This document shows positions 1-54,836 of a stretch of DNA of 64,000 nt, piece by piece. The stretch's first letter is position 1. The number at the start of each line of letters is the position of its first letter. Position numbers and translations under genes: made by a program. Below the pieces are notes generated by a model, which did not search any database, was not told where the DNA came from, and saw only the letters and a list, made by a program, of their open reading frames with translations. The stretch comes from Psammoneis japonica (Eukaryota): assembly GCA_008632985.1 (NCBI GenBank), contig QPGO01000053.1, positions 1 to 64,000 on the forward strand. Direction: 5' to 3'.

Positions 1-156
1 ATCCTTCTCACCGACAAGGGCAAGGCTCTCATTCGCGAAAATGTGGGTCTTCTGACGCACAGACCGTCTGCCACTCCTTGTCTGAGCACGCGCTTGCCTC
101 CACCCGCGCATCTGTCGAGTCCTCCACCCTGCTCACGCACCTGACCACCGCGCGTC

Positions 157-3100
157 TTGGTGATGGCACTTGGAAAGGTCCGACCCACGGTTCATCCTTC
201 ATTGGCAAGATCAGTTGCGCAAGTACGAGGCACTCATCCCGCCAGTGACCACTTCTCTGAAGGACAGAAGCGCGTCATGCTCGAGAATGCCGTGCACCCT
301 GTCGAGGAACTCCGTGCTGTCAAGAACCAAGCTGATCAGCATCGCACGCAGAGTGGCAGAGCTCACATGGATCAACACTGTGGCTTGCTCCTCTCCGCGG
401 CAGCTCAGTGCGACAGCACGTTTCAACCCAAGACGACACCTCGAGCTCCCCGACGCGCCACATGCGCACATGACGTCTGCTCCGAGGAACCGTCCGATGA
501 TGTGTTCTACGACATTGACAGCGACGTTGACGTCCTTCAGGCCAATGCTGCCTACACCCGCGGTCCCAGCCTCACCGGTGTCCAATGGAGACGTCTCCCT
601 CCCGACCACCAACGGCTCTGGGATTCGTTGCCCGATTCCTCCAAGGCGATCATCCTTGAGCATTCTCGTCCACCTCCCCGCAACCCGCGAGCCAGTGACC
701 ACCATGAGTCTGTTACGGCCAACCTTCATGACCAACGCCTTGGGAGTGACGGTGATGTCAACTTGTCCAACACGACTCCTGCGTGCTCTGGTGACTCCGC
801 TCCACATGTGGACGCCACTTCGGACAATCCCATCCTGGCGCACCTCACCAAGCGCAAGCCACTGCCACCCGGTGATCTGCAACGTCTGTTGTCTCCTAAC
901 CAAGCCCACAATGCCAGTCGACCGGGGCCATCCGCCGCTTCCTCTACCCCGCCAGCTTCTGCAGATGACACAGAACTTAACGGCCGCACTTGCCGCCGCG
1001 TCAACAACCACAATGTCATTTGCTCTGCCTCTGCTCATCGCTCCACACGCACTGGTGCTCTAGTCGATCGTGGGGCCAACGGCGGCATTGCTGGCGACGA
1101 CGTTCACGTCATTGCACGCACCTCTCGCCAAGTCGACGTTCAGGGCATTGACGATCATCAGTTGGTGGACATCCCCATTGTCACCGCTGGTGCCGTTGTT
1201 GAGACCCAGCGTGGTCCCGTCATCGCCATCCTCCATCAGTGCGCATGCACGGGCAAGGGCAAGACCATCCATTCCTGCGGCCAGCTCGAATGGTGCAAAC
1301 AGGATGTCAACGATCGCTCTGTCAAGGTGCCCAACGGCTTGCAACGTGTTGCCACTCCTGATGGCTATGTCATCCCCATTGACATCAAGGCTGGCCTGCC
1401 TTGTGTTGCCATGCGACCTTACACTGATGCCGAATGGGACACCCTGCCCCATGTCATCCTCACCGGTGATGACACATGGGACCCTTCCGTCCTCGATCAC
1501 TCTGTCACTGACGACGACCAGTGGTGCGACGCGATCTCTGANNNNNNNNNNNNNNNNNNNNNNNNNNNNNNNNNNNNNNNNNNNNNNNNNNNNNNNNNNN
1601 NNNNNNNNNNNNNNNNNNNNNNNNNNNNNNNNNNNNNNNNNNNNNNNNNNNNNNNNNNNNNNNNNNNNNNNNNNNNNNNNNNNNNNNNNNNNNNNNNNNN
1701 NNNNNNNNNNNNNNNNNNNNNNNNNNNNNNNNNNNNNNNNNNNNNNNNNNNNNNNNNNNNNNNNNNNNNNNNNNNNNNNNNNNNNNNNNNNNNNNNNNNN
1801 NNNNNNNNNNNNNNNNNNNNNNNNNNNNNNNNNNNNNNNNNNNNNNNNNNNNNNNNNNNNNNNNNNNNNNNNNNNNNNNNNNNNNNNNNNNNNNNNNNNN
1901 NNNNNNNNNNNNNNNNNNNNNNNNNNNNNNNNNNNNNNNNNNNNNNNNNNNNNNNNNNNNNNNNNNNNNNNNNNNNNNNNNNNNNNNNNNNNNNNNNNNN
2001 NNNNNNNNNNNNNNNNNNNNNNNTCACTGACGTCTACGGCACTAAGACGGACAAAGAGTTTGTCAACACACTCGAGGATCAGATCCGTGAACGTGGTGCC
2101 CCATCCAAACTCATTAGCGACCGTGCTCAAGTTGAGATCAGCAACAAAGTGCTCGGGATCCTGCGCGCCCTCTTCATCTCTAGCTGGCAAAGTGAGCCTC
2201 ACCAGCAACACCAAAACTTTGCCGAACGTCGACACCAGACCGTGAAGCGCATGGCGAACACTGTCATGGATCGTTTTGGTTCGCCTGCCCATGCATGGCT
2301 GCTGGCGCTCATGCACGTGTGCTTCATGCTCAACCATGCAGCGTCCCCACGTCTCCACTGGCGCACGCCCCTCGAGACTCTCACTGGCTCCACCCCGGAC
2401 ATCAGCCCGTTGCTTCGCTTTCATTGGTGGGAACCCGTGTGCTTCCACCTCGATGACTCCGATTGGCCGTCCGAATCCCGTGAGTTGCGTGGACGCTTCG
2501 TTGGCATTGCTGAGCACGTCGGCCACCAGATGACCTTCAAGATTCTATCTGACGAGACTCAGAAGATCCTCTGCCGGTCCAACGTCCGCTCCGCTACCCC
2601 CGATCCTGCCGTTCGAAACCTGCATCTTGATCCTCCTGATGGGGAGCCACCTGAACCCATCATCAAATCTCGCCATGACGACAACCCCGTCGACTCTCCT
2701 GATGGGGAGATCAGGACACCCAAGATGCCAGTTTTCGATCCGCAAGACATCATTGGACGTACCTTCCTCATGCAGCCACAAGAGGACGGACAACGCCACA
2801 GAGCTCGCATCGTCAAGGCCGTCGAAGACCACGAATGGAAAGTGAACGGCAATCCCGAGCTCACTAAGTTCGTCTGCTCTGTCAACAATGACGAATGCGA
2901 GGAAGTCCTTGCCTGCAATGACATCATGAATCACATTGAGCAAGAAGACGAAGACACCACTGTTTGGAAATTTCGACGCATCGTGTCGCACGAAGGACCT
3001 CTGAAGCCTCATGACCCAACCTGGAAAGGCTCCAGCTACAATGTCATGCTTGAATGGGAAAGTGGGGAGATCACGTCCGAGCCTCTTGCCATCATCGCCA

Positions 3101-5035
3101 AGGACGACCCCGTCACCTGTGCCATCTATGCACGAGAGAACGGACTCCTCGACACGGATGGCTGGAAGCGGTTCCGCACCATCGCGAGGCGCCAAAAGAA
3201 GCTATTTCGCATGGCCAACCAAGCCAAGCTTCGCTCCCTCCGCACTGCACCTCGCCACAAGTGTGGATGCGAAGTTCCCTGGAACTACAAACACGCCATG
3301 TCACTAGACGAACGCAACGGCAACCGCAAGTGGGGAGACGCAACTAATCTCGAGATGGACCAACTCGACGAATACGAAGTCTTCCATGACTGCGGGCCCT
3401 TCAAGTCTTCCACTCCTCCTGCGGGACACAAGAAGATCCGAGTGCACCTAGTGTGCGACGTGAAACACGACGGTCGCCACAAGGCACGACTCGTAGCCGA
3501 CGGGCACCTCACGGACGTACCTGTCGACAGTGTCTACTCCAGAGTAGTCTCCCTCCGTGGCCTTCGGCTGATGATTTTCCTGGCCGAACTCAACGAGTTG
3601 GAGACATGGGCCACCGACATTGGCAATGCCCACCTTGAAGCCACCACCAAGGAGAAGCTTTACATTGTAGCTGGACCCGAGTTCGGCAAACTCGAAGGGC
3701 ACATCCTTGTCATCCACAAGGCACTGCATGGACTGCGCAGCTCCGGTCTCCGCTGGCACGAGCGCTTCACCGACTGCCTGCGAGCTGAAGGCTTCTTCCC
3801 CTGCCGTGCCGAACCCGACATTTGGATGCGCAGGAACGGCGACCACTATGAACACATTGCCGTTTATGTGGATGACCTCGCCATTGCCATGAAGGACCCT
3901 CAATCTTTCGTCGACACTCTCACGGAAAATCACAAGTTCAAGCTCAAGGGTACGGGACCCATTGAGTTCCATCTGGGTTGCGACTTTTCCCGGGAACCCA
4001 ACGGAACCTTGTGCCTGTCTCCGCGCAAGTACATCGAGCGCATGGTCGACAGCTGCCCGACTGTTTGGGGAGAAACCTGCCACCAACGCCCTGTCACCTC
4101 TAGAGAAGGGTGACCACCCCGAACTGGACACTTCCGAACTGCTGGGACCCGATGGCATTCACAAGTTCCAGTCTCTTGTTGGTTCACTCCAATGGGCAGT
4201 GTCCCTTGGTCGAATTGACATTGCCACGGCCGTCATGTCACTCTCTAGCTTCCGAGCTGCGCCCCGTCAAGGCCACTTGGACCGTGCCAAACGCGTCTGT
4301 GGGTGCCTCTCCAAGATGCGACACGGTGCTCTCCGCGTTCGCACGGAAGAGCCCGACTGTTCGGATCTCCCTGCTCCGGCCTGTGAATGGATGCATTCCG
4401 TGTATGGTGAAGCAGAAGAGATGATCCCGAAGGACGCTCCACCGCCCCTTGGCAAGTTCGTCACCACCACCCACTACGTCGATGCAAACTTGTGCCATTG
4501 CATGCTCACCGGACGCTCTGTCATGGGAATGCTCCACTTCCTCAACAAATTCCCGGCTGATTGGTTCTCTAAGAAACAAGCCACCGTGGAGACTGCGACC
4601 TACGGGTCTGAATTTGTTGCCGCAAGGACTTGTGTTGAGCAGATCATTGACCTGCGCATCACCCTGCGCCACCTTGGCGTCCCGATCCGTAACGTTAGTT
4701 ACATGTTCGGTGACAACAAGTTGGTTGTAGACAGTGCCACCATCCCGCACTCCAAGTTACACAAGCGACACACCGCACTATCGTTCCACCGTGTGCGTGA
4801 GGCAATTGCCTCTGGTTGCCTTGAGTTCCACTTCATCGAAGGCTCCCGCAACCCTGCTGACATTCTCAGCAAGCATTGGGGTTACTCCCAAATCTGGGAC
4901 CTTCTCCGCCCCCTCATGTTCTGGAACTTCATTCCATCCAAAGTCGAATCTGTTTCTGTGGATCCTCAAGCAAACTGGGGAGTGACAGGATTTGAACAGG
5001 ATTCAGGTGCGCGCGAAGTATCGCACGCTGTTTAG
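157..5035 (+). pseudogene. Copia gag-pol polyprotein with a frameshift near 4060 and many Tyr->Cys/His substitutions
   Basis: ORFs 157..4113 and 3962..5035 join into a complete pol. The frame changes at VDSC/RLFGEKP. Confidence 0.9.
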
Positions 5036-5191
5036 TTTACCGTGCACAGTTTTGTGTGCTTTAGTTCCGCGCGTTCACGCGCGATGTAGTTTGCTTTCGA
5101 GCCACAAGGCTCACAAGAATGACAACAGTAGCCCGATCATGCCAACTTACACGTCTTTCGGCTCCCGCAACGGTCTCTGAGCGGAGACTCA
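4983..5191 (+). repeat. Putative 3' LTR (TGA...TCA, ~209 bp)
   Basis: Starts TGACAGG right after the polypurine tract and ends GAGACTCA. CpG density collapses immediately after 5191. The 5' LTR is not in the window, so the end cannot be confirmed. Confidence 0.6.
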
Positions 5192-6517
5192 TCTGCCATT
5201 TAGACAGCAGCAAGGAGTTGTTGTTTGAATTCTTGCCATTTGCCTTCAATTTCTGTCAGTCATGCTCCAGAGCCAGTGCCACAGACAGGGCAATGGCAGG
5301 GGGGGAGAGCAGCTCCACAGACTCAAATTTGGTGGCAAAGCAGTGCACAACAGTGCACAGGTCCTCAGCAAATTCTTCCACTGCCACAGCCCATGACCCG
5401 CCTGATGTTGACAAAGAATTGTCATCTGGGGTCAAGTGGGGGATGATGTCAAATTGGAGTCAACACCAGCAAGGTCAGGTGGATGGCCCAAGTGACTCCA
5501 GTTGCTTGGCCCTGCAGTGTCATTGGCAAGCCATTCACCACAAACAGACAAAGGTTGCAGCCAGCTTGCAGAAAATCCGGAGGTGCACTTGACTCAAATT
5601 GCATGTCTGAGGCAGTCTCATTCATCACAAAACCAAGCATCTCATTGGACACTTCAGCGGCAAAGGGGCATGAGTGGTTGCACGTGCAGCGTCTTTGCAT
5701 TGTTGATTGTGGAACTTTCATTTAGAGACAATGGAGGTAACTTTGTTGGTGTTGAGCTTGACAATTTCCAGAAGCAATGCAAAATGGGCCAGTTGAGAGC
5801 AGCTGCAATGACTGTGACCATGTGTGGCACACGCATCACAAAAATCAAGTCCTTGCAGGATTGAAACAATGCACTCTGGCAGTCCAAGAGACCAGACTGA
5901 TTTTGACCATGGCATGCATTCAGCAAGCCCATGGGATCAGTGGAGGCAGCAAGCTTTGGGTCAATCTGTGTGATGAGAGAGACAAGTTGCAGGTCATGTG
6001 GTGATGGAGCAGAGTTGCCAAGTCCATTGAGTTTGTGCTTGAGGAGGAGAGCTGATCCACATGGACCTGCAGGGACAGCCTTGAGGAGCTTCAGCAACTT
6101 GTTGCACTTGGAGTGTGTGCCAGTGGTGCAGACAGGTTGGTCTTGGCAGCGGATTCTTCAGCTGCCACAAAGCAAACAGTGAACTCATCCACCAGTTTGC
6201 ATGGGTTGCCCTTCCAGGATGGCATCTCAACCACTTTCCCAGCAAGAGTGGGAAGACCAATGGAGGCAAGATGGTTTTAATGGCAAAGCCATCCACAGAG
6301 GCAGCACATGTCTTCTTCCAATCATTGCACAAACAATGATCTGGCAGCATGTCATCCTGGAGCAGATGGCAAACTGCTGTTGGCAAGACATGCTCACCAG
6401 CATTGGATCACAGAAGTCAGACTTGTCACAAGTCAAGGTGTCAGGGTCCCAAATCGGAATTTTGGCCTGAGTGCACCAGGTGTGGATGCCTTTGAGGAAG
6501 ACAGCAAGGGGTTTTGG

Positions 6518-6561
6518 CACTGCAGTGCCTTTCCAATGACACTGCAGTGCCTTTCCAATGA
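6518..6561 (+). repeat. Perfect 22-bp tandem duplication CACTGCAGTGCCTTTCCAATGA x2
   Basis: Seen directly. Confidence 0.9.
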
Positions 6562-8719
6562 CAAAGCTGTCTTCGCCCAGCATGCAAGGACAAAGTGCCC
6601 AAAAACTTGTCACCAGATGGAGTTGACAAATCCAAGGATCTGGTGCAAGGCAGTCAGTGACAGAGCCAATGACTCATGCAATGCATTCTGTGGCTGCAGT
6701 GCCCATGGCATTCTTGGTGGCAGGAGCCAGGTCCACAGATTGGGCAGGCATGTTGGCAGTCCTGGATGGATGCAGCACAGAGAGATGTGCAATGGTCCTG
6801 CAGCTCCTTCTGAACACTGGCAACAGTGCATTGTGTGGCTTTGGAGAACTTTGCAGCAGTTTTGAGTTTTTCAGCCTGAATCTGGAGGGCATCACTCTGC
6901 GCAATGAGCTGAGCTTGAATGCCATTAAATTGGCCCCAAAGTGCAGCAGCCACAGCATGCTTTGCAACAAAATGGGGCCGGGGTGCAAGGGGGTTGGTGC
7001 AGATGACAAATCAGAATTGGACATGGGTGTGTGGAGGACATGACAATGTTTTCACAGTCATCCAAAACACCAGTCACAGCATCCACCACAGTGAGGCGCC
7101 ATTCTGGACAGTCTGTTTGGCACCCGCCTCAGTGGATTCTAGGTGTGCAAGTGTGATCTCCAGCTCATCAGTCTGTTGCTTGACACAGACACCTGGATGC
7201 AGGCCCAAAACTTCTTCAAAGTGGTGCTGACAACATTGCTGACAACACGCACAGCTTTGGATGCAGACAATTCAATGCATTGAATGTGGGTGTCCACAAA
7301 CAATTCTGGGTTGTTTTGTGCAACAGTCATCATCTTGCGCACTCATTCCAGAACAGTGGCTTCCATTGACTCATGCACTCTGACAGTGTGTCTGTCTCCA
7401 GTGCTGCCAGAAACTTCTTGTCACAAGCAGTGATTGCTTCATTGGCTGCATTGCCTGCAAGAAAAATGGCGTTGGCTGTTGCAGCCTCCATCTGGGAGTT
7501 CACTTCCATGCAGAAAGTGTCGAAGTCTTGGGAATGACCAAAATCAGTTGCAGCAGTGCTTTGGGAGAGCCCATGTGTCTCAGAGCACAGGTTGCAGACT
7601 TCTTGGTGCTGGAGTTTGCTGACTTCCTCCAAAGATGCAGCAAATGCCACTTTGCATTCATCTGGCTGTTCAATCACAGAGTCAACGTAGCTGTGACATT
7701 GTGAGAGAAGTTCTGAGTCAGGGATGGGTGGTGAATGAGGTGGTTCCGGTGGTTTGGCCAGCGGCGGCGGCACATCTGGTGGTGTGTGAGGCCAGTCAGG
7801 AGGCAGCTCAGGGGGCAAGCAAGGTGGGAGATGAGGCAAAATTGGCTGCAAAGGAGCAATGGCAGCTTGAGGTGTCAGAAAAGGAGTTGCTCCATTGTCA
7901 GGTGTTGCAACAGCCACCTCAGCCTCTGTGGCATTGTCTGCTGCAGGAGACACAGGAGGAGATTTTGTTGTTGCACACGCCGTTGTGACAACCATGGTTG
8001 TTGCAGGCAACATGCAAGGTGCCACTTTGGGGTTTTCAGTGGCTGGTGTTCCATCGGCCGATGACAGAGAGAAATCATCCTGAAGGGATGAGAGTTTGGC
8101 CCATCATGAGGATGCCATTTTGGAGTGGACAATGTCAGCAAGCACCATGGTTGCAAGAGAAGGAAAAATCCATCATCATTGCACCACGCAAGGGCAGCAG
8201 GTCTTGGAACTTGGTGGTGTGCAACCAACAAGAATGCAGTGCACACAGAAGGAATGCTGCAACACGTGCAAGCAGATGCAAAAACAAAAGGCAATGGTGT
8301 GAAGCAGCAACCAATGTGAGTGCACCGTTGTCATTGACAGAGCAGCAGAGTTCACATTGCAAATGCTCTCTGCTGGTGTTGTTGACAATGGGAAAAGAGG
8401 AGAGTGTTGTGTTGCCATTTGTGACCTTGTGCAAGCATTGCTCACCACCTGACAGAGACCCCCATGTCTGTGCAGATCTGTTCAATTGGATCCCAGCTGT
8501 GTGCTTTTGGCAAAGTTGAAAAGAGCCACCCACAACCTCCATTGCCTTGCTGCATTGTTGTTCTTGGTTGCATGCTCCTTCAACAAGCCAGCACTCAAGA
8601 GCTGCAGCCCAGCCCCCTTGATGAGCCACCATCAATCAGCTTGGCCTGGGTCACCCCAGCCATCCTCACCTCATCCCTCATCTCTGACCCTTCTCTCAGT
8701 CTTCTCTGGCCCATCTCTG

Positions 8720-9162
8720 GATTTTGCCCTTTGTCACATGATTTTGCATTTCTTTTGAAAACAGGGCTCACACATTGCTGCCCCTTGTCACATGGTGTTG
8801 CCCTTCATTTGAAAACAGCTGCCCTTTGTTTGAAAACAGCTTGCAGTGTTGCCCTTTCTTGTTGCCCTTCACATCACACAACGTTGCCCTTTTTGTGAAA
8901 ACAGCTGCCCTTCATCACATGATGTTCAACCTCTTTTAAAAAAGTTGCCCTTCTTTTGAAAACGTGGCCCATCACATCATGGTGTTGCTCTTCTTTTGAA
9001 AACAGGGCCCACATTTTTGCCCCCCCCATCACACGATGTTGCCACTCATCACAGCCCCCTTCTTCACATGACCCTTCTTTTGAAAACAGTGCTCACGATG
9101 TTTCCCTTCATCACATGGTGCCCTTCATCACATGGCATTGCCCTTTCTTGTTGCCCTTCATT
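8720..9162 (+). repeat. Array of shuffled short motifs (TTGCCCTT, TTTGAAAACAG, CATCACATG)
   Basis: Each motif recurs many times within ~440 bp. Confidence 0.75.
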
Positions 9163-9613
9163 GTGCAGTGTGCATGCAGACAAAAGGTCATTTTTGTCAC
9201 GCCCTTTGTGACATTTAAAGGCTGTGACACGTCGCCGTGACACATTGGCTCTTGTTGGTGGCTGTACATTGCACTCCTCCCCATGCATCACGCGTCCACA
9301 CGGCTCTTTACTGACGTGCACTGACACTGCACGGTTTTGGCGGAACAGTGTGGGCACGCACGAAGGAACGCACAGAACTGCACAGAGTTTTGCACGTTCG
9401 ACAGTGATCAACGTTGCTGCAGACAACTCCCACTCAGGGTTTCGAACCCCTGGCCTCCTGCCCAATGGTTGCGATGAACCACTCCGTTGTGAATTCACAA
9501 TGCAGTGTGCATGCAGACAAAAGGTTGTTTTTTGCAACGCCCTTTGTGACATTTAAAGGCTGCAACACGTCGCCGTGACACATTGACTCTTGTCAGCAGC
9601 TGCACATTGCACT
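9163..9613. repeat. Two ~112-bp direct repeats (9163-9274 and 9501-9613), each with imperfect terminal inverted repeats (MITE-like), flanking a ~225-bp spacer
   Basis: Both copies read TGCAGTGTGCATGCAGACAAAAGG...CCCTTTGTGACATTTAAAGGCTG...TG(T/C)ACATTGCACT. Confidence 0.8.
9426..9490 (-). other. tRNA-like fragment (SINE head or tRNA pseudogene)
   Basis: Minus strand has GAGTGGTT (A-box-like) and CAGGGGTTCGAAACCCTG (B-box/T-arm hairpin). No complete acceptor stem. Confidence 0.45.
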
Positions 9614-12344
9614 TTCCTGAGGGAGCAACATTTCAAGCAAAAAAAAATGGCGAACGTCAAAGGACCTGCAAATTGCTGGTGGCCTGGCTTCAGCTTCACT
9701 CTCAGCAGCTCAAAGAGCATTCCGTTGAGACAGAGAACAGGGGAAGACTGAAGCAGATCTCCAAATGGAGTCATGTCCTGTGTCTGTTGACTGAAGTTGA
9801 GAAAATCTCTTTGCCCAATTGGGGACAATTGACAAAAGTCATGCTCCATTGGCCCAAACCACTTGCTGCAAACTGCAGCAGCACTTGGCTCCTTCTGATC
9901 CACTGAAGCAGTCTTGGTCACTTCAATGATTGCGTGCGCAACATCCTGTTTTGCCAATTGACCACATCTTCAACAAAACTTCTGCTCACGTTGTCACTTG
10001 TGGCACACTTGAGATGATGTCCAATGACAAGCCATTTGTGCTCACCCTCAGAAAATGCAAGTTTCTTCAACACAGTCACATGCTCAATTTCAATTCATTG
10101 TGCCAGGTCACTCACATGATCACCAGCAAATGGAGACACCAAAAAATTTGGGGATTGCAGAAGACAGCACACACCATCAATTGAGAGACTTCATCTTGGT
10201 GTCATGTGGGAGCGAGGCTTCATTGAGAACAAGTTGCAACAACAGGTTCCAACGGCTCTCCTCTCACAGAGAATGCATCTGCCTCATCCACAGAGATCCC
10301 AAAGCATGGAACACTGCAAAGATTTGAAGCAGGATGACAGCACATGCATGTGGGTTGGAGCAGCAGCACCAAAAAACCCTTGGCCACCGTGTGCCAAGAG
10401 AGTTTTTTGTGTCCAGAAAACTGACACATCACCACAGTTTGAGAAGCCAAATTGAGCTCATTGTTTTTGATCAAGGCAACCACAGCCGGGCAATCTCAAG
10501 CTCAGGCATTGTCGCCACACCACTCTTTGACTGTCCCCTCATTTCCTTGGCCCCTTTGGCAACAATGTGAGGGATGCACCAAGCTCTTCTCAATGTTTTC
10601 TGCAGACCATCTTCTTTTTTGGCCCCAGTTGTCATTGTGCGCTGTGTTGACCAGTCAAATGTTTGGTTCTGCTGTCCTGACAATGATCTCTTCCTGGGGT
10701 GGATTTTCAAGGAATGGCTTTCTCCACAAATGGAACATCAAAAGCATGCCACACCATGTTGGTGAAGAAAGCATGGACCAAGACAGGATTTCGGATGTCA
10801 ATTGTCAAGTTTGAGCATTGCTTTGGAGATGACATTTCACTGGGTCATGATTCCTCTGCATTGACTTGCACCATTGATTCATCACAATGGTTGTTGGAGT
10901 CCAAAGGAGCTTTCTGCTCTTCCTCAGAGGACTCACCACCTGCAAAAGGACTGCCAGCTGTCATGTTGGCAATTGCAACATTGAACTTGATTTTGTCTTT
11001 GTCCTTCTTCTTCTGCTCTTCATCCTTCTTCTTCTGCTCTCTGAAAGCCGCCTCCCAAGTTTGACCATTGCTGTTTTTCCAATCTTTTTTGCAAAACAGT
11101 TGTTGCAATGCATGTCATTGTCACAATGCTTGTGATGCCAAGAGTTTCTGCAACATGGCATTTGCGCTTGTGCACAGTGGATCAGCACTTGTTGAAAACC
11201 AGCTTGAGAGCATTCTTTTCTTTGTCCAGCACACATTGTCAAGGTGAAGTGTTGTTTCACTCCACGTCCCTTGTTCAATTCTTTCTTGCCATTGAGAAAG
11301 TGTGTCTGACATTCTTTGCTTTCAGCCAAATCATTCTCATTTGGCTTGAGGGTTGTGAAAGCCAGAGCACAGTGCTTTTCTTCTGTGCAATGCTGCAGGC
11401 AGTCATTGTCTGCAACAATGATCTCAGAGTGAATGAGAGAACCCAAGGAAGTCAGAAACATTGGATGCTGCAGCTGGCCATCAGAGGGAGGCTGATGGCT
11501 GGCTGGCATTGCGTTCACCAGCCAAGGGGCATGGTGGATCAGAAGTGGGTTGGAAAGGGACACAAAGAGGATCACAAAGGGATTGCAAAGGGATCACAAG
11601 GGATCATTCTTGCATTGAATTTTGCAGATGTGAAGGGGCGCGAAACATTCTTGTGAGGGGGGATGACATCTTCTCTTGGCAACTTCAGCAATGCTGGGGG
11701 GTCCTTTGGCAAAACTTTCAATGAAGTGCATGACAGGCACTGAGGGCCTGGACATCTTCCATGATGAGATTCGCAGCTGCGCTCCGGAGCAGGACTGCCA
11801 GCGTGCTTTGCACACCACAGCTTTGAGGTGAACAAGAAGAAGGCCACCGAGGATGACAAGAAGGCTGCCCCTGACCAACTGCCCCTGCAAGGAAACATTG
11901 GAGAGCCATTCAAAGGTGCCATGAAGCATGAGCAGCACATGTGAAGTCGGAGAAGGAAGGTCATGAAGGTGTGATTGGAGGCATTTCAATTTGCAATGTA
12001 ACACACACAGCAGGATCTGCCAGTTGGATTTCTTGTCACCTGTTGATTTCCATTTGCTGCAAATTGAATGCTCTCTCTAGAGAGTGGAGCAGGGCTGCTG
12101 CACTCTAAAAAACGATGACAGCGGCGGAAACTGGAAGCCATGTTTTTTACTGTTCGGATTTTGAATTTGTCGTTTCAGATTTTGACATTGGTCAAAATCT
12201 GTTTTTCCGCCCCATGTGGGCTATGCCCACCAACATGCTGAAATCACGCGTTGCGCGGATTAATTACCGTATCCAAAATGGCGTTGTTGTTGCACTGCCA
12301 ACAGCCAAGGCTAGCCATCCACCTCGATCGCTGCTATTGTAATT

Positions 12345-14454
12345 ATGACTGAGCGGAGGTGCTTGACTCTTTCAGTGTTTCTATCTGTCATTTTATTTAC
12401 AAGCAGTGGTTTTACAAGAGCTGCACATCATGAAGCAGCAGCATGCCGACGGAGATCGGTCGCATGTTTTGCGGCACAGCAGACTCACCAGCAAAACTCA
12501 AAGAAAGACTACGACTTGATTGTCATTGGCGCGGGTGCATCCGGAATGTTTGCAGCTGGTACCGCTAGTATGTTGGGTTCGAAAACATTGGTGTTGGAAG
12601 AATCTTTTGTGCTGGGTGGCGACTGTACAAACTTTGCCTGTGTGCCGTCCAAGGCCGTGCGCTCGATTGCAAACGTGGCCGTGAAATCAGCAGGCATCGA
12701 GGACTGTACAAAAGCAGGAACAACAAATTGGTTGGACACGGCACAACAACATGCATACGACACAGTCCAAGCTGTGAGTAAGCGTGAAGATCCCAAAGAT
12801 GTTGCAGAAAGAAATCCCAACCTGACGGTACAGTTTGTCGAATCGTGTCGGTTCGTCTCCTCTCATGAAATTGAGTTTGTGCCTGTAAAGAAACTCAACG
12901 AGTCATTCCAAAGAGCAAACTACAACAGTCGTCAGCAGCAAGAAATTCCCAATTGCAACAGGTGCATCACCCACAGTCCCTTCCCACCTGGCAGAACAGG
13001 CGGAGGCCGCAGGCATTCCTGTCTTCACATGTCGTTCCATTCTCAATCCTTGCTTCGCTGGAGACGGAAATGCTGCCTCAATGTGGCAGTTGCCACAACA
13101 ACAATCCAGCATGAAAAGAAACTTGATCGTTGCAGGTGGCGGACCGACTGCGTGTGAACTCGGACAGGCCGTGGCAAGATTGGCCAAGGCCGCAAACGCC
13201 ACGGTTGACATTGCAATTGTGGCACCAACGACATTGCCACGACAAGACGTGGCGTTACGACACGCGGCAATGAAGCTTCTAGTCCATGACGGTGTTTGAT
13301 TGATTCTTGGTCAGCGTGTGACAGAAGTCATGCCCAACAACAGCTCTGACAGCACCTGTTCGGCAACTGTTGAACGCGGCGAGAATGATGAACAACAGAA
13401 GAAGATGGACAATGTGATTGGCTTGGTTTTGTGCATGGGTCGAAGTCCTAAATCATCGCTGCTAGACTGAATCTGGATGCTGCAGATATCAAATGGACAG
13501 ATCGAGACGGTGTCGTGGTGGACAAGTATACCTTGGCATCTCCTTCTGCCAAGCACGTGTATGCGTGTGGTGACTGTTGTTCCGCCACTCAAAACAGTCG
13601 CACGGCAGCTCATGCCGGATGGACTGGGTTTCATGCCGCGCGTAATACTGTTCTGCCATCGTGGCTCTTGTTTCCGAGGTTTCTTGGGAGACGAAAGGCT
13701 TCTGTTCACCAACATGTGCCGAGCGTGACGTTTACACATCCAGAACTTGCGTCCGTTGGATTGTCTCTTGCCGATTGTGTAAGAAAGTACGGAGTTGACG
13801 GATTCGATTGTTTGAATATAGCAGAAAAAGGCAATATGGATAGGGCCGACATGGAGCGATTGGAACGCTTTACCAGTCCGAGCTTTATCGAGCTTCGTGC
13901 AACCAATACGGGAAGGTGCTGGGAATGACGTGTTGTAGTCCAGTTGGATCGGAATTGGCAAATGAAGTGGGACTAGTGTTGGAACATGGCATGACAGTGA
14001 CTGACATTGCACGAGCAATTCATTCGTACCCCTCCCACGGATACATGCTTCATCGAATGGCACTCGCGTTGGCAACCAAGGACACTGTGTGCTTGGCGGA
14101 AGCTGCTGGTGGTCCTTTGGGTAACGTGATCGGGAAAGTTGCAAAAAGGATTCTTCAAACACGTGATACTATCAAGAATAGTTTAGTACCACAGAAACGA
14201 CGGCGAGCCAAGCGGCAACGTGATTGGGAAGCAGCCGGCGTCGACAAGGCCATAATGCTGTTGAGAAACACTGGTGAGGGCGAGAAGAGTGTGTTGGATG
14301 CTTCCAACATAACCATATGGAATTGGTTTCTTTTCTGCAGTTGAAGAAAAATAGTACCATTGAAAGCGAGATATCCCATCAATCAGCAATGACATGGACG
14401 TCCAAAGACGAGAAACTAGAGTTTAGAAATTGGATGGAAAGAAAGCCAATCTGA
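12345..14454 (+). pseudogene. Class I pyridine nucleotide-disulfide oxidoreductase (mercuric reductase/dihydrolipoamide dehydrogenase-like), disrupted
   Basis: Motifs IGAGASG, GGDCTNFACVPSK, GGGPTACELG, VYACGDC, VTFTHPELASVG, IHSYPSHG. Several frameshifts and an in-frame TGA at 13297-13299. Confidence 0.8.
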
Positions 14455-14733
14455 AGTAGACCTTGGGTATATACGTATTCATTAGCGAATAGTGACGTCG
14501 CTTTTTCCTACTGGTACGCCCATGGTCAGTATTACCACACGTATGTAGATCCTCATACAGATCCTACGGCTCAATCCTCTTCGGCTTCTGCCGCCATTTT
14601 TGTCGGAGGGAAGATGGAAGATTCATACTTTCTGCTTTTATTCATCGGCAGAACCGACAGGCAACAGCTCTAAAGGCTATTGCTTTGTTTTGTTGGTTTT
14701 GTAACCTCGCTTTGCCTTTATCATATACGAACC

Positions 14734-38554: not shown

Positions 38555-39029
38555 TACGCTAAGCTTTGTTGATTGCAAAATGATCCTTCGTCACCGACCA
38601 AAACAATCTCGACCAGAAACAATTCCGTTAGTGCTCCAGATGTAGATGGCGTTGAGCACCATGACAATTTTCGAAAACACCGCTTCTTGCATGATACGCC
38701 AGACAAAGCAGCTGCCCTTGAATCATCGGTCGCTACCTTACGTTCATTTCGTTTCTGCCTGCTATTACATGACTTGCATCCAGGATCATGTCGGAAAACC
38801 ACAAAGATCATGTCACAAAAATCTCTAGTTGGATGAAACGGACCTGAAGAACGAGTGCTCTGTTGAGTTAGTATGAAAGCGGGGACCCTTAATGATTCAA
38901 TGCCGCATGCCGGTACGAGTGGAAGTATCTTGGTGAAATCTATGAAATCTATCCCCCAAACCAGAGAACGAGAGGTTGGCTACACTCTTCTCTATCGAAC
39001 TCGGTGGGCTTCTGTGTGCTCTTAACCCT

Positions 39030-39251
39030 CTGCTCTAGCAGCTAGCTAATAGTAGTAGGGCCCTCTAGAGCTACCGGTAGAGGTAGATGGTAGCTCTACT
39101 CTCTCTAGCTACTAGTAGCTACTACTTCTACTCTAGTAGCTACTCTCCAGTAGCAGGGGGCACAGAGTAGAGAGCTACTCTAGAGCTAGAGAGTAGCTAT
39201 CTACCGTAACAGAGAGTACCGGTAGAAGTACAGTACTTGTAGTACTTGTAG
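39030..39251. repeat. CTAG/TAG/CTA-rich low-complexity tract
   Basis: Built from CTAG, GTAG, CTAC, AGAG and ACCGGT words. Confidence 0.85.
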
Positions 39252-39259
39252 TTAAGGTT

Positions 39260-46442: not shown

Positions 46443-46995
46443 GACGTGGAAGTTTTTGGGTTATGGGGTGAAACAGATTCTTGCGGGCTGCTACTCTCTA
46501 CCGGTGCCGGTGCTACTCTGCTCTCTACCAGGCTCTAGCAGCTAGAGTGGTGGCTGCTCTCTAGAGCTAGCTAGAGAGAGTAGAAATCCGGATAAATGTG
46601 GTGAAGTGTCAAAAATCTTCTGCATCCGCATCGCGCTTCGATGACCACATGATGTGTGATGTGTGTGACATCTTCACACAACATGTCACATCACTTCTTG
46701 CTTGTCAGCTTCTGGCTGTGCACTGTTGTTCCATGTTCATTTTTTGTGTGTTTCATTTTCCTTCACATGCCTGGTGTCTCCAGAGAAGCCTGCTTGACTC
46801 AAATCCTTCAGACTCACACAGAAGATGCTCTGTCTGCACTGCAGCAGTGTGCTCAGCAGCAGTTGTTGGGGCAAACGGAGGCCTCTGCTGACAATGAATG
46901 CCGCGGTGTGTGGCGGTCTTGTGGGGGGGATCTCAATCACTGTCTTTCAATGACAGTGAGCCATCAAGGGCCAAGAAATGTAGAAAATTCATGGA
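46443..46995 (+). pseudogene. Mutated duplicate of the promoter and 5' coding end of the gene at 52857
   Basis: Colinear with 52568-~52992 (GGGTTATGGGGTGA, CCTGGTGTCTCCAGAG, TCAAATCCTTCAGACT, ATCTCAATCACTGTCTTTC). The start ATG is lost. Confidence 0.88.
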
Positions 46996-47444
46996 TGAGG
47001 AGCCACCAGCTCTCAACGACACACTTGGCAGCCTGGCTGATTGACAGAAAGCAAGTGGCGCACTCCAGCCCCAGGTGGGGCTCCATGCGACATGGGCTTG
47101 CAGAACTCTGCGTGCAAGCTCTGCAGCTCAAGAGCTTGGTCAATGGACACATTTTTGTCTTCAACATCCAAACAAACAACCAAGCTTGTGGCGTGGTTGT
47201 GCCTCCCCTCAGCCCGCCTGCTCTGCTCCGCTCTTGACAGACAATTTTAAGAGCGGCACTGTGAAAACAAATGTCAAAAGTTGTTGAATGGACAGCCCAA
47301 CAATCGCACTGCAAAATGGCACAAAAATGCAACCAAAGTCATGCAGAAATGCATGTGCATGACATGCGGAGCATGACAAGACAACTTCAATGTGTCGCAG
47401 TCCAGCACTGCGAGGTCCCACCCAGAGCTGGAGCATGGCTGCAG

Positions 47445-47925
47445 TGACAAACTTGCCAAATGGCTTGGACATGTGTCAGAAAGATCTCCTTCACATGATC
47501 TTCACCACAAATGGCATGCATCCAGTCATGATGCGCAGGCTTGAGAATGTCCAAGTGGTCAGGCTCTTTGTTGCACACATGTGTGCAAGGCACCATGTTG
47601 CATCTTGGACAAGTGTCTGCAGACATGTTTGGCACAATCAAAGATTGCAGCTTGGCTTGGCTGACCATGTGGAACAGCTTCTTCTGTCACCTTGCAGCTG
47701 CGCAAAAATGTTTCCAGCCTTTGGCATTGAGAAAGCCATTCTTGTGTGCACAGATGATGGCACAGGTGACAGGGTTGCCCTTGGCAACAACTGTTGGAGG
47801 CTTGGCAGCAAGGATCTGCCTGCTCTCACACTCAAACAAGACATTGCAGCTTGAGCCTTTCCACACAGGCTCTCATGAGATTCCAGCCCTTTGTGTGACA
47901 ACATGCAGCAGAACTTTCACTGAAC
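47445..47925 (-). mobile_element. Decayed, internally deleted copia fragment of the same family as 1-5191
   Basis: Minus strand reads WKGSSCNVLFE...NPVTCAIICAHKNGFLNAKGWKHF...QKKLFHMVSQAKLQSL, then DCAKHVCRHLSKMQHGAL, KEPDH, DWMHAICGE, FGKFVT. Confidence 0.88.
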
Positions 47926-47962
47926 CCCACCATGATGACTCATCAAATTTGTGGATTGGGGG

Positions 47963-48632
47963 GATCAGGACATCCAAGAAGCCATTTTTTGATCCTGCAG
48001 ACATGTTGCCTGATGCACCTTTCTCGTGAAGCCTCAAGAAGGCATGCCATGGAGCTTGCATTGTCAAAGTTGGTGAGAACCATGACAGCTTGTCATTGAA
48101 CATGTCTGGGACAGGGGCTCGTGGAGGCTTTGAGAGGCACTTCTTGGGCTGAATTTGACAATGTCCACAGGACGCTCATGACCATGGTGGGGCAATGGCT
48201 GTGGAGCCAGCGGTGCTGTCAGGAGCTTCCAGCATGTTTGTCAACAAAGCTGTCCAGCCCACCGACACCGCCAAAGCAACAACAAAGCAACAGATGGGGA
48301 GATCAGGACATCCAAGAAGCCATTTTTTGATCCTGCGGACATGTTGCCTGATGCACCTTCCTCATGAAGCCTCAAGAAGGCATGCCATGGAGCTTGCATT
48401 GTCAAAGCTGGTGAGGACCATGACAGCTTGTCATTGAACATGTCTGGGACAGGGGCTCGTGGAGGCTTTGAGAGCACTTCTTGGGCTGAGTTTGACAATG
48501 TCCACAGAGGACGCTCATGAACATGGTGGGGCAATGGCTTTGGAGCCAGCGGCACTGTCAGGAGCTTCCAGCATGTTTGTCAACAAAGCTGCCACAGCCC
48601 ACCAACACTGCCAAAGCAACAACAAAGCAACA
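47963..48632 (+). repeat. ~338-bp tandem duplication whose first ~140 bp is a plus-strand copia fragment
   Basis: GATGGGGAGATCAGGACATCCAAGAAGCC at ~48293 matches copia 2701 GATGGGGAGATCAGGACACCCAAGATGCC. Confidence 0.88.
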
Positions 48633-49366
48633 ACGTTGCTGTGCCAACCAGGCAAAAGCTCGGCCAAAGAAGAAGGTGGCAGCTCACCCCATGTGTGGCC
48701 ACAAGCCCCCCCTTGCCCCCCCCCCTTTGGGTTGACAGGCTGTTGTGGTGAAAGGGAAGGAGAAATTCATTCTTCACCAGGTTGAGGCAATGTGGCCTTT
48801 GTTGCCTTGGGTTTTGGTCGGCTGCAGGGGGGGCTCCAACCTCGGAGCACTGCCAGGCTTGGACCCAACACACCATTGAGAAGAGAGCTGAAAGCACCGG
48901 TGGCTGTTGCTTTTTCTCTTCTAGTTTTCTCTTCTAGAAAAGAATGAACATCAACAATCTACCCCTGCGAGCCAGCGAGTGAATTTTGAAAGGGGCAGGC
49001 AGTGCGAGTGGCATGGCCCAGGTCCGCAGAAAAAAGGGCGCTCGAAAACATGACGGTTGGAATGCGGACCTATTCCCACGCAGACCCCGCGGAGTGTCCA
49101 TGCCGCGCCGGAAAAAATGAAACGCGGGTTGTCGTTCGTGCCAAGTGCCAAGTTGCTCACGTGCTCACAAAGCGAAAGCGTCGCTGATGTCCACAATCCT
49201 TGTCATCTGTGCCGGTAAGCTGTGCGTACACGGCCCTTCATTTGTTGTGATCGCAGTGCAAAAACTGCCCTTGAGAGCGCCCTAGTAGCTGGGAATGCTC
49301 GACAGGCCGTAGCAGGGTAGCAGGCCATACAACGAAGCCATTTGCACCTTCTTCTTTTCCTCAGAA

Positions 49367-52445: not shown

Positions 52446-52856
52446 TGCTATACAGTATCGAGGACGCAGCCGACAAGCGACGCTAGATGATAGCGATATG
52501 ACTAGGTTTGGCATCGCATCTTCTTTTTCTTCGAAAGAGGAATTAGAAATTGGTCGCGGATGCATCAGACGTGAAATTTTGGGTTATGGGGTGATACGGA
52601 TTCGCGCGGGAAACTAATTCACTTCTACAAATCCGAATAAATAGAATGAATTATCAAAAATCTTCCCATCGCGCTTCGACGACATGATGATGTTATGTGT
52701 GATGTGCGACATTATCAGAACACCATCTGCTTTCCATCGTTCTGTGTTCATTTGTTGTGTATTTCGTTTTGCGTTACGTGCCTGGTGTCTCCAGAGTAGA
52801 AGCCCGGTTGATTCAAATCCTTCAGACTGATAGAAGATACTGTCTGTGCTACAACC

Positions 52857-54836
52857 ATGTTCGAAAATTGGGGCGAATGGAGGCCCCCGACCATGAAGAC
52901 CGCGGTGTATGGTGGTCTCGTGGGGGTCATCTCAATCACTGTCTTTCGATACCGTCGAGCCATCCAGCGAGAAATGCAGAAAGTTCAGGACGAATCATTG
53001 ATATTTGGTGGCCTGACGATGGTCAGGCAAAAACCTTCGGTCGATAATGTCAGTACACGTTCTCTTGGGCGCACCATGGTTTTGGAGTTAAACCCAGATT
53101 TTGTTGAGCTTCACAACGAAAAATGGCGTTTCACGAGTTTGGGCGACTACTTATCGAGTCTTCGTCCCGGAGTCATACCAGGAAACATCGAGACAAAGGA
53201 TCTTCCAGGTTGGATTCAGACCGAATTAGAGGCGGGGTTGGCGACTTCTCTTGTCAAACTGCTTGGCCCAACCGCAGGGAGAGCTTTGCTTCCCGCATTA
53301 GGCATGGGACCGGTGCCTTCGGTTGTCAGTACGGTGGCATCGAATCTCGTGTCCCGCTTCTGGTCAAAGAGCTCCAAGGAAGGCGGCGAAGATCAAGGAC
53401 TCCTTTCTCTGACCTTGTACAATGCTCTTGGATTCTCAGATATGAACGCAACACGTGTGTCAAACAAAAAGAAGCGCGACCCGGAAAGCACTACCAACGA
53501 AGATCTCACAGCCATGGACAAGATGAAAATAGGTGAATACGGACCGACACCATCATATGGGTCCTCCTTTCTAGCAAAAGATGAGGAGTCTTCCGAACAG
53601 GAAAAGCCATTGATACCAAACCCGTTTGTCGTGTCTGAACACTGGGAGCCTGCGATTCGTGGGATGGAAGAACTTATATCCAGTTCGGCGAGTTATCAAG
53701 GCGCTGCGACTCGGATGGAGGTCGATGCTAGGAATGACATTGATCCTTCAAAAGAAGAGAATGTCGTTGAAGTTATCAAGTATGACCCGAACGGAAAAGA
53801 GTTGATCGAGCCAGTTCCCGTGGACGAGAAGATTTTCCCTGACCTTCACCTTGGGTTTGGTGGCGCAAAGTGTACACACACTCATCGAGAAATCGTCCAG
53901 AACCGTCTCATTGCGGTACTGCTAAACCGCCTGGCGGCTAACTATCACGACTTCTACACTGATGGAGAGACAGAGGAGAAGTTTATACTCCAAATGGATA
54001 AGGCTGGAAAGCAAATTTCTCGCCCACATGAGTTCTTTGATGCTCTAATTGAAAGTGGTCACGATGTGACAATGCAGGTCGCGACGCAGCCGACAACTTT
54101 CGGGGTAGCGTTGTGCATCAAAGAGGAGGACGGGAGTTGGACAAATGTTCCACTCTCATATTTCTTTGGAAGTGGATACGAAACTGACTCTGGGCAAAAA
54201 GTGCCAGCATTGCTGCCACACAGTGGGGTGAATCTCGAGTTGACGGGTCCTCTAATTGGGTCCTCTTCCAGGTGCAGTCTTCAGCACTACATGGCAATTG
54301 AAGGAATGTGTGGGTGGCACTCCAATCATGACGCCGATGTCCCGTGGCTCCAAAGAACGTACTGCGGGCCTTCCTTGAAAGGGGTGGATGTGTCGCGTGC
54401 CGCGAGAGTTGCAGCGTTGTACGGTGTCTTGCTGAACACTGTCGGTACTGAAATGGATCTTCCATTTGGAGGCTATGGCTTGACAGCAGTTTGTAATGAT
54501 ACTGCGGCGGTTCTGGAGCACTCACTCCATGGTTCAACCAATATATATCCTCTTACATCTATTGGTCGATTTTCTATGCATGTGATTCGATATGCGAAAC
54601 AAGTAAGAGACAACATGTCAAATGACGAATCCATGGCAGCCGAGGTAAAAGATTTGAATTCTCTTATGCGCTCAATCCGAAGCATTCCCTCTGACTTGGC
54701 TCCCTCGCCAAGAAATGTTGAGGATGCAGGGAAAAGAATGCTTCACTGTCTCCCCGATGATTTACCATTTGAGCTCATGTTGCAAACAGAGAAAAACATG
54801 GGTGTCATCATGGAGGAATACGAACATTTTGGATGA
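52857..54836 (+). CDS. Hypothetical 659-aa protein with N-terminal membrane anchor
   Basis: Long uninterrupted ORF; PFGGYG..VCND motif; function not recognised. Confidence 0.8.
   Translation: MFENWGEWRPPTMKTAVYGGLVGVISITVFRYRRAIQREMQKVQDESLIFGGLTMVRQKPSVDNVSTRSLGRTMVLELNPDFVELHNEKWRFTSLGDYLSSLRPGVIPGNIETKDLPGWIQTELEAGLATSLVKLLGPTAGRALLPALGMGPVPSVVSTVASNLVSRFWSKSSKEGGEDQGLLSLTLYNALGFSDMNATRVSNKKKRDPESTTNEDLTAMDKMKIGEYGPTPSYGSSFLAKDEESSEQEKPLIPNPFVVSEHWEPAIRGMEELISSSASYQGAATRMEVDARNDIDPSKEENVVEVIKYDPNGKELIEPVPVDEKIFPDLHLGFGGAKCTHTHREIVQNRLIAVLLNRLAANYHDFYTDGETEEKFILQMDKAGKQISRPHEFFDALIESGHDVTMQVATQPTTFGVALCIKEEDGSWTNVPLSYFFGSGYETDSGQKVPALLPHSGVNLELTGPLIGSSSRCSLQHYMAIEGMCGWHSNHDADVPWLQRTYCGPSLKGVDVSRAARVAALYGVLLNTVGTEMDLPFGGYGLTAVCNDTAAVLEHSLHGSTNIYPLTSIGRFSMHVIRYAKQVRDNMSNDESMAAEVKDLNSLMRSIRSIPSDLAPSPRNVEDAGKRMLHCLPDDLPFELMLQTEKNMGVIMEEYEHFG

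Follow-up and report, generated by a model that had tools for sequence, protein, structure and literature searches.

Background

The process most like the one considered here has been described from the chlorarachniophyte alga Bigelowiella natans, in which integrated viral DNA is subject to hypermutation specific to the dinucleotide TpA (Mettrop et al., 2026, bioRxiv 10.64898/2026.01.13.699255). According to that preprint, 231 of 302 new substitutions in mutation-accumulation lines fell in two single-copy integrated viral regions, and 230 of those 231 were A>G or T>C, all on TpA; the rate was given as ~6e-7 per site per generation, ~1000 times background. The B. natans genome was reported to hold 124 clusters of TpA-poor, CpA+TpG-rich windows, its TpA-poor genes were enriched in transposon domains, and adenine deamination by an ADAT2-like enzyme was proposed by the authors. 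Here, the first 64,000 nucleotides (nt) of contig QPGO01000053.1 of the diatom Psammoneis japonica (GenBank assembly GCA_008632985.1) were analysed. This whole stretch, referred to as the window, contains two blocks, domain 1 and domain 2, in which TpA (TA) is almost erased and CpG (CG) is depleted, and a Ty1/copia retrotransposon that borders the first of them.

Local, dinucleotide-specific mutation is otherwise familiar from fungi. Classical ascomycete repeat-induced point mutation (RIP) changes C to T at CpA, raises TpA and with it the TpA/ApT index, acts only on duplicated DNA and requires a RID/DNMT4-type methyltransferase and a premeiotic stage, and a variant in basidiomycetes (Microbotryum) reportedly targets TCG. 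In diatoms, transposons are reported to be CpG-methylated, and this methylation is maintained in Phaeodactylum by DNMT5a (PMC9998398, PMC2806351). A deaminase of the ADAT family that acts on DNA has been reported from amphioxus, where BjADAT2 deaminates C at TCG (PMC10354150).

Results

Composition and limits of domain 1

An earlier note, made from the letters of the window alone, had taken positions 5192 to 12070 for a sharp-edged domain with about 13 TA in ~6.8 kb, none of them between ~9560 and ~11995, where base composition would predict several hundred, and with CG scarce and TG and CA dominant. By dinucleotide count, this region (6879 nt) contains exactly 13 TA, for an observed/expected ratio (o/e) of 0.03, at positions 5201, 5723, 5738, 6278, 6926, 7140, 7688, 8937, 9216, 9265, 9309, 9554, and 11999. 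The longest TA-free gap of the window (2445 nt, 9555-11998) lies where the note had placed it. Chance expectation was derived from 1000 mononucleotide shuffles of the domain 1 bases, which gave 445 +/- 16 TA (minimum 381) and 415 +/- 16 CG (minimum 369). CG numbers 81 (o/e 0.20) and its loss is uneven, CG being kept in an insert at 9190-9600, and CA (821, o/e 1.97) and TG (749, o/e 1.69) are raised, together 1.7-1.9-fold. The description in the note was thus accurate in each of these respects. Nor does the TA level resemble that of the background, since ordinary 1-kb windows have a TA o/e of 0.45-0.92 and a CG o/e of ~0.7-1.25, the values for the full window being 0.50 and 0.85.

The two edges differ in kind. 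On the right, the claim of a sharp edge held: the change takes place at ~12,000-12,078, with 14 TA in the next 320 nt (12,078-12,398) and 1 in the preceding 2,500 nt. The left edge is an insertion boundary because the long terminal repeat (LTR) of the copia element ends at 5258 (unique contig sequence begins at 5233), and it is possibly not the limit of the domain. This gives about 5259-12,075 as the true unique extent of domain 1, which may go on past the copia insertion and beyond the window.

On both strands of 5259-12075 the stop triplets are TAA 14, TAG 4, and TGA 355, so only 18 of 373 are TAA or TAG. Open reading frames (ORFs) of at least 100 amino acids (aa) occur at 4.69 per kb, against 1.9-2.5 per kb in gene-dense background. 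The six-frame ORF carpet of the domain arises because TAA and TAG stops vanish, as the note had argued.

Direction of change in domain 2

A second block of the same composition (~46,600-48,920) has a TA o/e of 0.02-0.05 and a CG o/e of 0.22-0.24, with a TA-free gap at 47248-48922. It is composed of scrambled fragments with relatives of normal composition in the window (Table 1), and three alignments of domain-2 pieces to such relatives were used for polarising the changes. None of the 12 TA of the normal copies was kept in domain 2 (6 became CA, 4 TG, and 2 other), and 2 of 42 CG were kept (23 became TG and 12 CA). When the two are pooled, 45 of 54 sites are TG or CA in domain 2, and the remaining 14 dinucleotides were retained at 42-82% in the same alignments. 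The proposal of the earlier note that TpA and CpG are both driven to TpG/CpA is upheld by these copies (10 of 12 TA and 35 of 42 CG). At the protein level, the tblastn alignment of the copia fragment at 47568-47872 contains Tyr>Cys and Arg>His/Cys/stop changes. The two units of the 338-nt tandem duplication differ by 4 CG<>TG/CA changes, 8 further transitions, among them one TG<>CA doublet, and 2 transversions. Together with those of the insert, the copia element, and the flank below, these comparisons show that the composition was made by mutation and not by selection or chance.

The gene at 49367-51415 was considered as a paralogue of 52857-54836 split by domain 2, and this was rejected because the two have no similarity.

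Copy number and content of domain 1

Depth was measured as the word depth of 31-mer contigs from sequencing run X1, which is probably the source sample of the window assembly. Outside 9005-9738, the word depth of domain 1 is 33-46; three contigs cover it with 0 differences, and contigs of up to 3958 nt match it exactly at even depth. Among the runs listed for the stretch there was none of RNA, a negative that does not bear on expression. At a likeness of at least 85%, domain 1 is single-copy. The depth over 5335-12307 (33-46, in one contig version) is that of one of the two versions found over the adjoining flank (12308-14500, ~35-55 each). This would fit a hemizygous domain 1 or a partner allele that has diverged by more than 15%.

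The earlier note had expected buried elements. In domain 2 these were found (copia fragments and a gene fragment), but domain 1 yielded none by profile, tblastn, phmmer, or purine/pyrimidine-alphabet searches. Pfam searches of 32 domain-1 ORFs of at least 100 aa reached no curated cut-off (two sub-threshold chance matches), and six read-through frames with X at stops matched no family (one sub-threshold match). Rfam at E <= 0.1 and a tRNA search with ARAGORN each gave 0 matches in the domain, as did tblastn with 42 copia protein queries. The longest domain-1 ORF (257 aa, 7330-8103 on the minus strand) had 0 relatives by phmmer among 1.84 billion representatives, and no stop-poor reading frame was found in the domain. 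When domain 1 was compared with the window in an ungapped purine/pyrimidine alphabet, only internal repeats exceeded a reversed-sequence null. Among them is a loose array at 8720-9160, whose units match each other by blastn at 73-93% identity, with one exact 23-nt match, and which is also visible as diagonals in the reduced alphabet.

A high-copy repeat inserted in domain 1

Within domain 1, the block 9005-9738 has a summed word depth of ~50,000 in run X1 and holds a short, very high-copy insert (9164-9613). The window copy of this insert has CA or TG at 8 sites at which TA makes up 24-68% of family depth. At four more sites it has CA where other copies have CG (37-98% of family depth), and at one site the relation is reversed, the window copy keeping CG where most of the family depth is CA. 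The insert retains ~20 CG and 3 TA, which implies a rate of loss several times higher for TA than for CG. Between its two 112-nt arms there are 12 differing positions, of which 8 form four TG<>CA doublets and 1 is TA<>CA; each doublet is best read as one ancestral TA that would have been converted on opposite strands in the two copies.

The insert appears tRNA-like by eye only, and neither ARAGORN nor Rfam returned a match for 9164-9613. The duplications at 9164/9501 and 47957/48295 have near-equal periods (337-338 nt) and no sequence similarity to each other; the shared period is possibly a coincidence.

The copia element and its relatives

The copia element comprises two overlapping reading frames (145-4113 and 3893-5035), the interior of which matches Pfam RVT_2 with an E of 3e-27. 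A scaffold gap of 482 N lies at ~1540-2030, where the integrase core would be expected. Protein relatives number 2251 at E <= 0.001, and the best 120 that were listed are 50-73% identical. The summed word depth of the interior, 72,000-105,000, implies thousands of copies, and the LTR bin (4968-5334) has the highest summed depth of the stretch, 344,641. A contig of a further run, X2, matches 5221-5258 and then diverges from the window. The LTR has TA and CG at normal density until ~5200. Over 1-5035 the element is in an intermediate state, with a TA o/e of 0.17-0.37 and a CG o/e of 0.79-1.02.

In an alignment of its reverse transcriptase (RT) region with the best 80 relatives, Tyr columns were defined as those in which Tyr is the majority residue (60% or more). 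Conserved Tyr is retained in 8 of 17 such columns of the copia RT and is replaced by 5 His, 3 Cys, and 1 Trp, against retention in 230 of 252 columns for non-Tyr conserved residues. With stricter columns (at least 80% of 26 sequences), 7 of 11 Tyr, 11 of 11 Arg, and 181 of 185 others were kept. His and Cys are the residues that Tyr codons yield as a consequence of TpA conversion, and both outcomes (TA>CA and TA>TG) stand on the sense strand, which speaks against editing of RNA or complementary DNA (cDNA) on one strand.

For comparison, 79 related copia loci were collected from metagenomes. Only 2 of them have a single Tyr>His/Cys change; their TA o/e is 0.49-1.15, and none has a 1-kb window below 0.12. 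The lowest CG o/e among them is 0.16 for a whole locus and 0.07 for a matched region only. Five loci (L009, L028, L030, L060, and L069) combine a CG o/e of 0.16-0.24 with a TA o/e of 0.49-0.66, and in L069, L077, and L074 from 3 to 5 of 11 conserved Arg are changed to Cys, His, Gln, Trp, or stop. Over the 79 loci, TA and CG o/e are correlated (Spearman 0.43, p 9e-5). Loci that are CG-poor and retain TA imply that CpG decay without TpA loss occurs in other diatoms. By this comparison CpG decay appears to be common in diatom copia elements, and extreme TpA loss to be special to this genome.

Flanks of the domains

The 1-kb windows that flank the two domains have a TA o/e of 0.38 (from 12001), 0.37 (13001), 0.41 (46001), and 0.35 (49001), and every other non-transposon window is higher (minimum 0.45). 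The flanking genes have a depth of 45-92, split between two contig versions of ~35-55 each. Over the whole stretch, the window and the other contigs differ at 178 places (162 transitions and 16 transversions), of which 40 were listed, 22 of these within 12.4-14.1 kb. Among these 22, the TA<>TG/CA type accounts for 15 (in 12 the window has TA where the other contig has TG or CA, and in 3 the reverse), with 4 CG<>TG/CA and 3 other differences.

In the window copy, the oxidoreductase gene of the right flank is broken into pieces in four frames. The other contig lacks 1 nt at 12887, which would rejoin two of these frames; either a pseudogene in the window allele or an indel error of the assembly could account for this.

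Separation of TA loss from CG loss

TA loss and CG loss are separable and, judged from these comparisons, represent two processes, because in the copia element and the 9190-9600 insert TA has been lost ahead of CG, and because the copia elements of other diatoms lose CG without TA loss. The comparisons show strand-symmetric A:T>G:C changes confined to TpA, together with CpG>TpG/CpA, in sharp-edged blocks with 1-2 kb of leakage, and they show the TpA change as the faster one. Present-day repetition is not required, as domain 1 shows. The affected DNA includes the copia fragments of domain 2, the copia element, and the high-copy repeat, and a host gene fragment and the flank of a host gene are also converted.

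The CG that remains in 5259-12075 and 46650-48920 depends on context (chi-square p 8e-7): relative to background, TCG/CGA stands at 0.10, ACG at 0.17, CCG at 0.22, and GCG at 0.32. By analogy with methylated diatom transposons, the CpG part fits deamination of 5-methylcytosine. Two further candidates were considered. Mutagenesis of the polymerase-eta type (WA>WG) was rejected, as AA is not depleted (o/e 1.10), and a single 5'-T-specific deaminase of A and C for both losses was not favoured, as TC is undepleted outside TCG (TC o/e 0.99).

Table 1. Positions of the domains, repeats and converted copies in the window
Feature	Position	Strand	Evidence
Ty1/copia retrotransposon interior, cut by window start	145..5035	+	ORFs, Pfam RVT_2
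3' LTR of copia element, start approximate, end 5258	4968..5258	+	depth, contig break
Domain 1, TpA erased and CpG depleted, single-copy	5259..12075	.	dinucleotide counts, word depth
Loose array of ~80-240-nt direct repeats (ttgccctt...ttttgaaaacag units) in domain 1	8720..9160	+	repeat family D11, blastn self-matches
Short, very high-copy repeat insert, 338-nt period, 112-nt direct repeats round CG-rich core	9164..9613	.	depth, comparison with family, composition
Flank with partial TA loss and pyridine-nucleotide-disulphide oxidoreductase gene	12078..14350	+	composition, Pfam Pyr_redox_2
Domain 2, TpA erased and CpG depleted, scrambled fragments	46600..48920	.	dinucleotide counts
Converted copy of upstream region and first codons of gene at 52,857	46581..46991	+	blastn 75% identity to 52626-52987
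Converted copia fragment	47568..47872	-	tblastn E 4e-20 to window copia; blastn 70% identity to 3230-3022
338-nt tandem duplication of second converted copia fragment	47957..48632	+	units 94.7% identical; match copia 2701-2834
Normal-composition paralogue, promoter and start of ORF 52857-54836, used for polarising	52626..52987	+	blastn, alignment

Remainder of the window

The genes of the window code for ordinary metabolism and run as long open frames. For a PP2C gene at 16.8-18.0 kb, the best relatives (48-66% identity) come from Nitzschia, Seminavis, Fistulifera, Cylindrotheca, and others, and on this evidence the window was assigned to a raphid pennate diatom. Eleven tandem units of 252 nt (84 aa), 60-88% and mostly 77-88% identical to the reference copy, lie at 20072-22946 within the minus-strand ORF 20270-24055, an open frame of 1261 aa with a DUF7107 match; this array is unconverted (TA o/e 0.47-0.55, CG o/e 0.89-1.06). 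Two tandem aldo-keto reductase genes (32774-33799 and 34283-35278, minus strand), ~71% identical over 300 nt, are unconverted as well and serve as a useful internal control on the idea that repetition alone triggers the process. An excess of TA occurs in a single 500-nt window, 39001-39500 (50 TA, o/e 1.45; CG 0.61), presumably an AT-rich spacer.

Discussion

Proposed mechanism

Domains 1 and 2 are probably silent junk DNA that has been shaped by two region-restricted transition processes. They would most likely be old mobile or foreign DNA, and the younger copia and short-repeat elements would have been inserted into domain 1 later. The dominant and faster process would change A:T to G:C at 5'-TpA-3' on either strand, turning TA into TG or CA; it would act on DNA in place and spill 1-2 kb into the flanks, and its activity seems to continue today. 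The second, slower process would be a decay of CpG to TpG/CpA via 5-methylcytosine deamination, strongest at TCG. For the faster one, we infer that an ADAT/TadA-like enzyme that prefers a 5' T deaminates adenine in DNA to hypoxanthine. This chemistry would be the most economical because deamination cannot give T>C, and editing the A of the palindromic TA gives both outcomes. Targeting may proceed via silent chromatin or small RNA, and the role would be one of genome defence, as proposed for B. natans.

Several points weigh against this account. The ancestor of domain 1 is unrecoverable, so its history is inferred from composition and neighbours, and the zero-difference contigs from run X1 provide no independent confirmation of its sequence. 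The paralogue comparisons of domain 2 are old: in four pooled alignments, 86 transversions and 72 other transitions stand beside 57 TA/CG conversions, which means that conversion is not the sole source of divergence; TA/CG conversion in the domain-2 copies is complete on top of ordinary divergence. The Tyr losses may be shared by the whole family rather than particular to this copy of the copia element. Five majority differences were listed for 3500-5334, and there the window copy has CpG decay at three, a transversion at one, and at the fifth a TA that is TG in 99% of the family. Were the losses common to the family, a transposon of thousands of copies would have spread in a TA-poor state, which would fit escape from TA-directed attack. 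In the flank, the other contigs represent a second haplotype or a paralogue, and the difference types refer to the 40 of 178 places that were listed. The 3' neighbour of the changed A is C in 10, T in 7, A in 2, and G in 2 of 21 cases, and the search for an extended ADAT-like motif gave 17/21 for 3' C/T against 55/84 available, which is not significant. Finally, amphioxus ADAT2, the sole natural ADAT2 reported to edit DNA, has GAA rather than TA as its preferred context for A (PMC10354150).

Alternative explanations

A homology-dependent defence similar to RIP, in which duplicated DNA is point-mutated at TpA and CpG instead of CpA, would suit domain 2, which consists of duplicated material (copia fragments, the copy of a gene 5' end, and the 338-nt tandem duplication), and both high-copy families of the window (copia and the 9190-9600 repeat) are affected; diatoms as a group are also reported to carry DNMT4 enzymes related to fungal RID (PMC9998398). 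We nevertheless give it a small chance of being correct, because domain 1 is single-copy at a likeness of at least 85% (depth 33-46) and has no detectable relative in the window even in the purine/pyrimidine alphabet, the 252-nt tandem array and the tandem aldo-keto reductase genes are unconverted, and the direction is the opposite one, TpA being destroyed rather than made. In B. natans, too, the targets are reported to be single-copy (bioRxiv 10.64898/2026.01.13.699255). Editing of A to I in transposon transcripts by an ADAR/ADAT-like enzyme with a 5' U preference, fixed by reverse transcription, would account for the affected sequences that can be recognised, which are retroelements (copia and possibly the repeat, if it resembles a short interspersed nuclear element (SINE)), and UA is described as a favoured ADAR/ADAT context (bioRxiv 10.64898/2026.01.13.699255). 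It is very unlikely, however, given that TA>TG (3 Cys) and TA>CA (5 His) both occur on the copia sense strand, that a non-transposon gene fragment with its promoter is converted, that conversion extends in part to a single-copy gene and to the flanks of both domains, that TG<>CA doublets separate the two arms of one insert, and that domain 1 is single-copy with no retroelement features.

The domains might also require no local targeting at all, if a mutation bias against TA and CG acted genome-wide, the domains were the oldest unconstrained DNA, and selection kept TA and CG elsewhere. TA is indeed low throughout the window (o/e 0.50) and most of the differences in an ordinary flanking gene fall on TA, but the edge is sharp (1 TA in the 2,500 nt before 12,078 and 14 in the 320 nt after it), TA-rich intergenic stretches such as 39001-39500 (o/e 1.45) exist elsewhere, and young insertions in or beside domain 1 are already TA-poor and still CG-rich; little weight is therefore given to a general bias. 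Selection on a functional non-coding element or transcript that avoids UA and CG, as many RNA viruses do and thereby evade host nucleases and sensors, could draw on the joint avoidance of UpA and CpG in some viral RNAs and on the TA-poor state of a copia family that looks active. It is highly improbable when set against the lack of any RNA family, conserved ORF, or homologue for domain 1 (Rfam, Pfam, and phmmer), the broken, stop-containing state of the converted pieces of domain 2, the hits at conserved Tyr and Arg codons, and the equal purging of both strands. An artefact of sequencing or assembly, such as modified bases miscalled as G or C, is scarcely credible: although the sole run that contains the stretch is probably its source sample, 31-mer contigs of up to 3958 nt match with 0 differences at even depth, which needs accurate reads, the conversions are graded across transposon copies and visible as coding changes, and the N gap in the window is typical of short-read scaffolding.

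Implications

It can be suggested, tentatively, that diatoms, or this lineage of them, run a DNA-level, TpA-directed defence of the deaminase type against silent, mobile, or foreign chromatin, in which all TA would be turned into TG or CA, that this is the same system as that of the chlorarachniophyte, and that successful transposon families, the copia element among them, survive by purging TpA. If so, the defence destroys Tyr codons, TATA-type and AATAAA-type signals, and all TAA/TAG stops; it could be old and widespread in the SAR (stramenopiles, alveolates, and Rhizaria) supergroup; and a copia family that purges TpA even at conserved tyrosines would represent an arms race written in dinucleotides. 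A saturated example from a diatom would place the process in a second, ecologically dominant SAR lineage, and the question of the enzyme becomes directly testable in diatoms that can be genetically manipulated.

The window also illustrates the end state, TA-free blocks with a six-frame ORF carpet that is misleading to gene finders and repeat annotators, and it sets the TpA process cleanly apart from the slower decay by CpG methylation on the same DNA. The signature that can be searched for in any assembly is a TA o/e of ~0, a CA+TG of ~2, Tyr>His/Cys in transposons, and TG<>CA doublets between copies.

Comparison with known systems

The domains and fungal RIP have in common that transitions specific to a dinucleotide are made locally and at a high rate, spoil mobile DNA, leak into flanks, and produce blocks with a skewed composition. 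RIP differs in that it leads from CpA to TpA, the reverse of the direction seen here (TpA o/e 0.03 and CpA o/e 1.97), and in that it needs duplicated DNA, whereas domain 1 is single-copy and other repeats of the window are spared. The TCG bias of the CpG loss resembles the TCG-targeted basidiomycete variant. Decay of CpG in methylated transposons, as in vertebrates and diatoms, shares the CG o/e of 0.20 and the TG/CA excess in transposon-associated DNA, but it cannot account for the loss of TA, and of the two effects seen here that loss is the larger and the faster.

APOBEC3 (C>U on cDNA), ADAR (A>I on double-stranded RNA), and ADAT2/3 are alike in providing context-specific editing as a defence; enzymes of the ADAR/ADAT type favour a 5' U, and an A>I change read as G would give TA>TG/CA. 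These restriction systems act on single-stranded intermediates and leave one-strand signatures, unlike the changes on both strands of resident DNA described here, and amphioxus ADAT2/3 would be a loose analogy only.

The TpA process of the diatom appears, by analogy, to match the TpA hypermutation of B. natans. In both, TpA>TpG occurs on one strand and TpA>CpA on the other, discrete regions lie beside ordinary DNA, single-copy DNA is targeted, transposon-type sequences are among the targets, and TpA-poor, CpA+TpG-rich windows are clustered. By the window thresholds of that paper, 9 of the 63 windows here qualify, namely those of 5001-12000, which form seven consecutive windows, and the two of 47001-49000, which are below its cluster length. 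The two cases differ in the organism, a rhizarian against a stramenopile diatom; in the degree of TA loss, with an o/e of 0.45 in the B. natans region of nucleocytoplasmic large DNA virus (NCLDV) origin against 0.03, or saturation, here; in the coupled loss of CpG and the absence of recognisable viral genes here; and in the kind of evidence, newly arisen mutations there and a comparison of sequences here. In the text of the preprint that was available, 'CpG' occurs 0 times, and diatoms are likewise not named (bioRxiv 10.64898/2026.01.13.699255). The literature searches gave no report of TpA loss in diatoms, and it is not described in the available text of five diatom papers (PMC2806351, PMC9998398, PMC4504042, PMC8147415, and PMC6604790). 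In the literature searched, the only account of this kind of process so far is the 2026 preprint on the rhizarian alga; the diatom case differs in belonging to another major lineage, in its saturation, and in the CpG decay that is overlaid on it.

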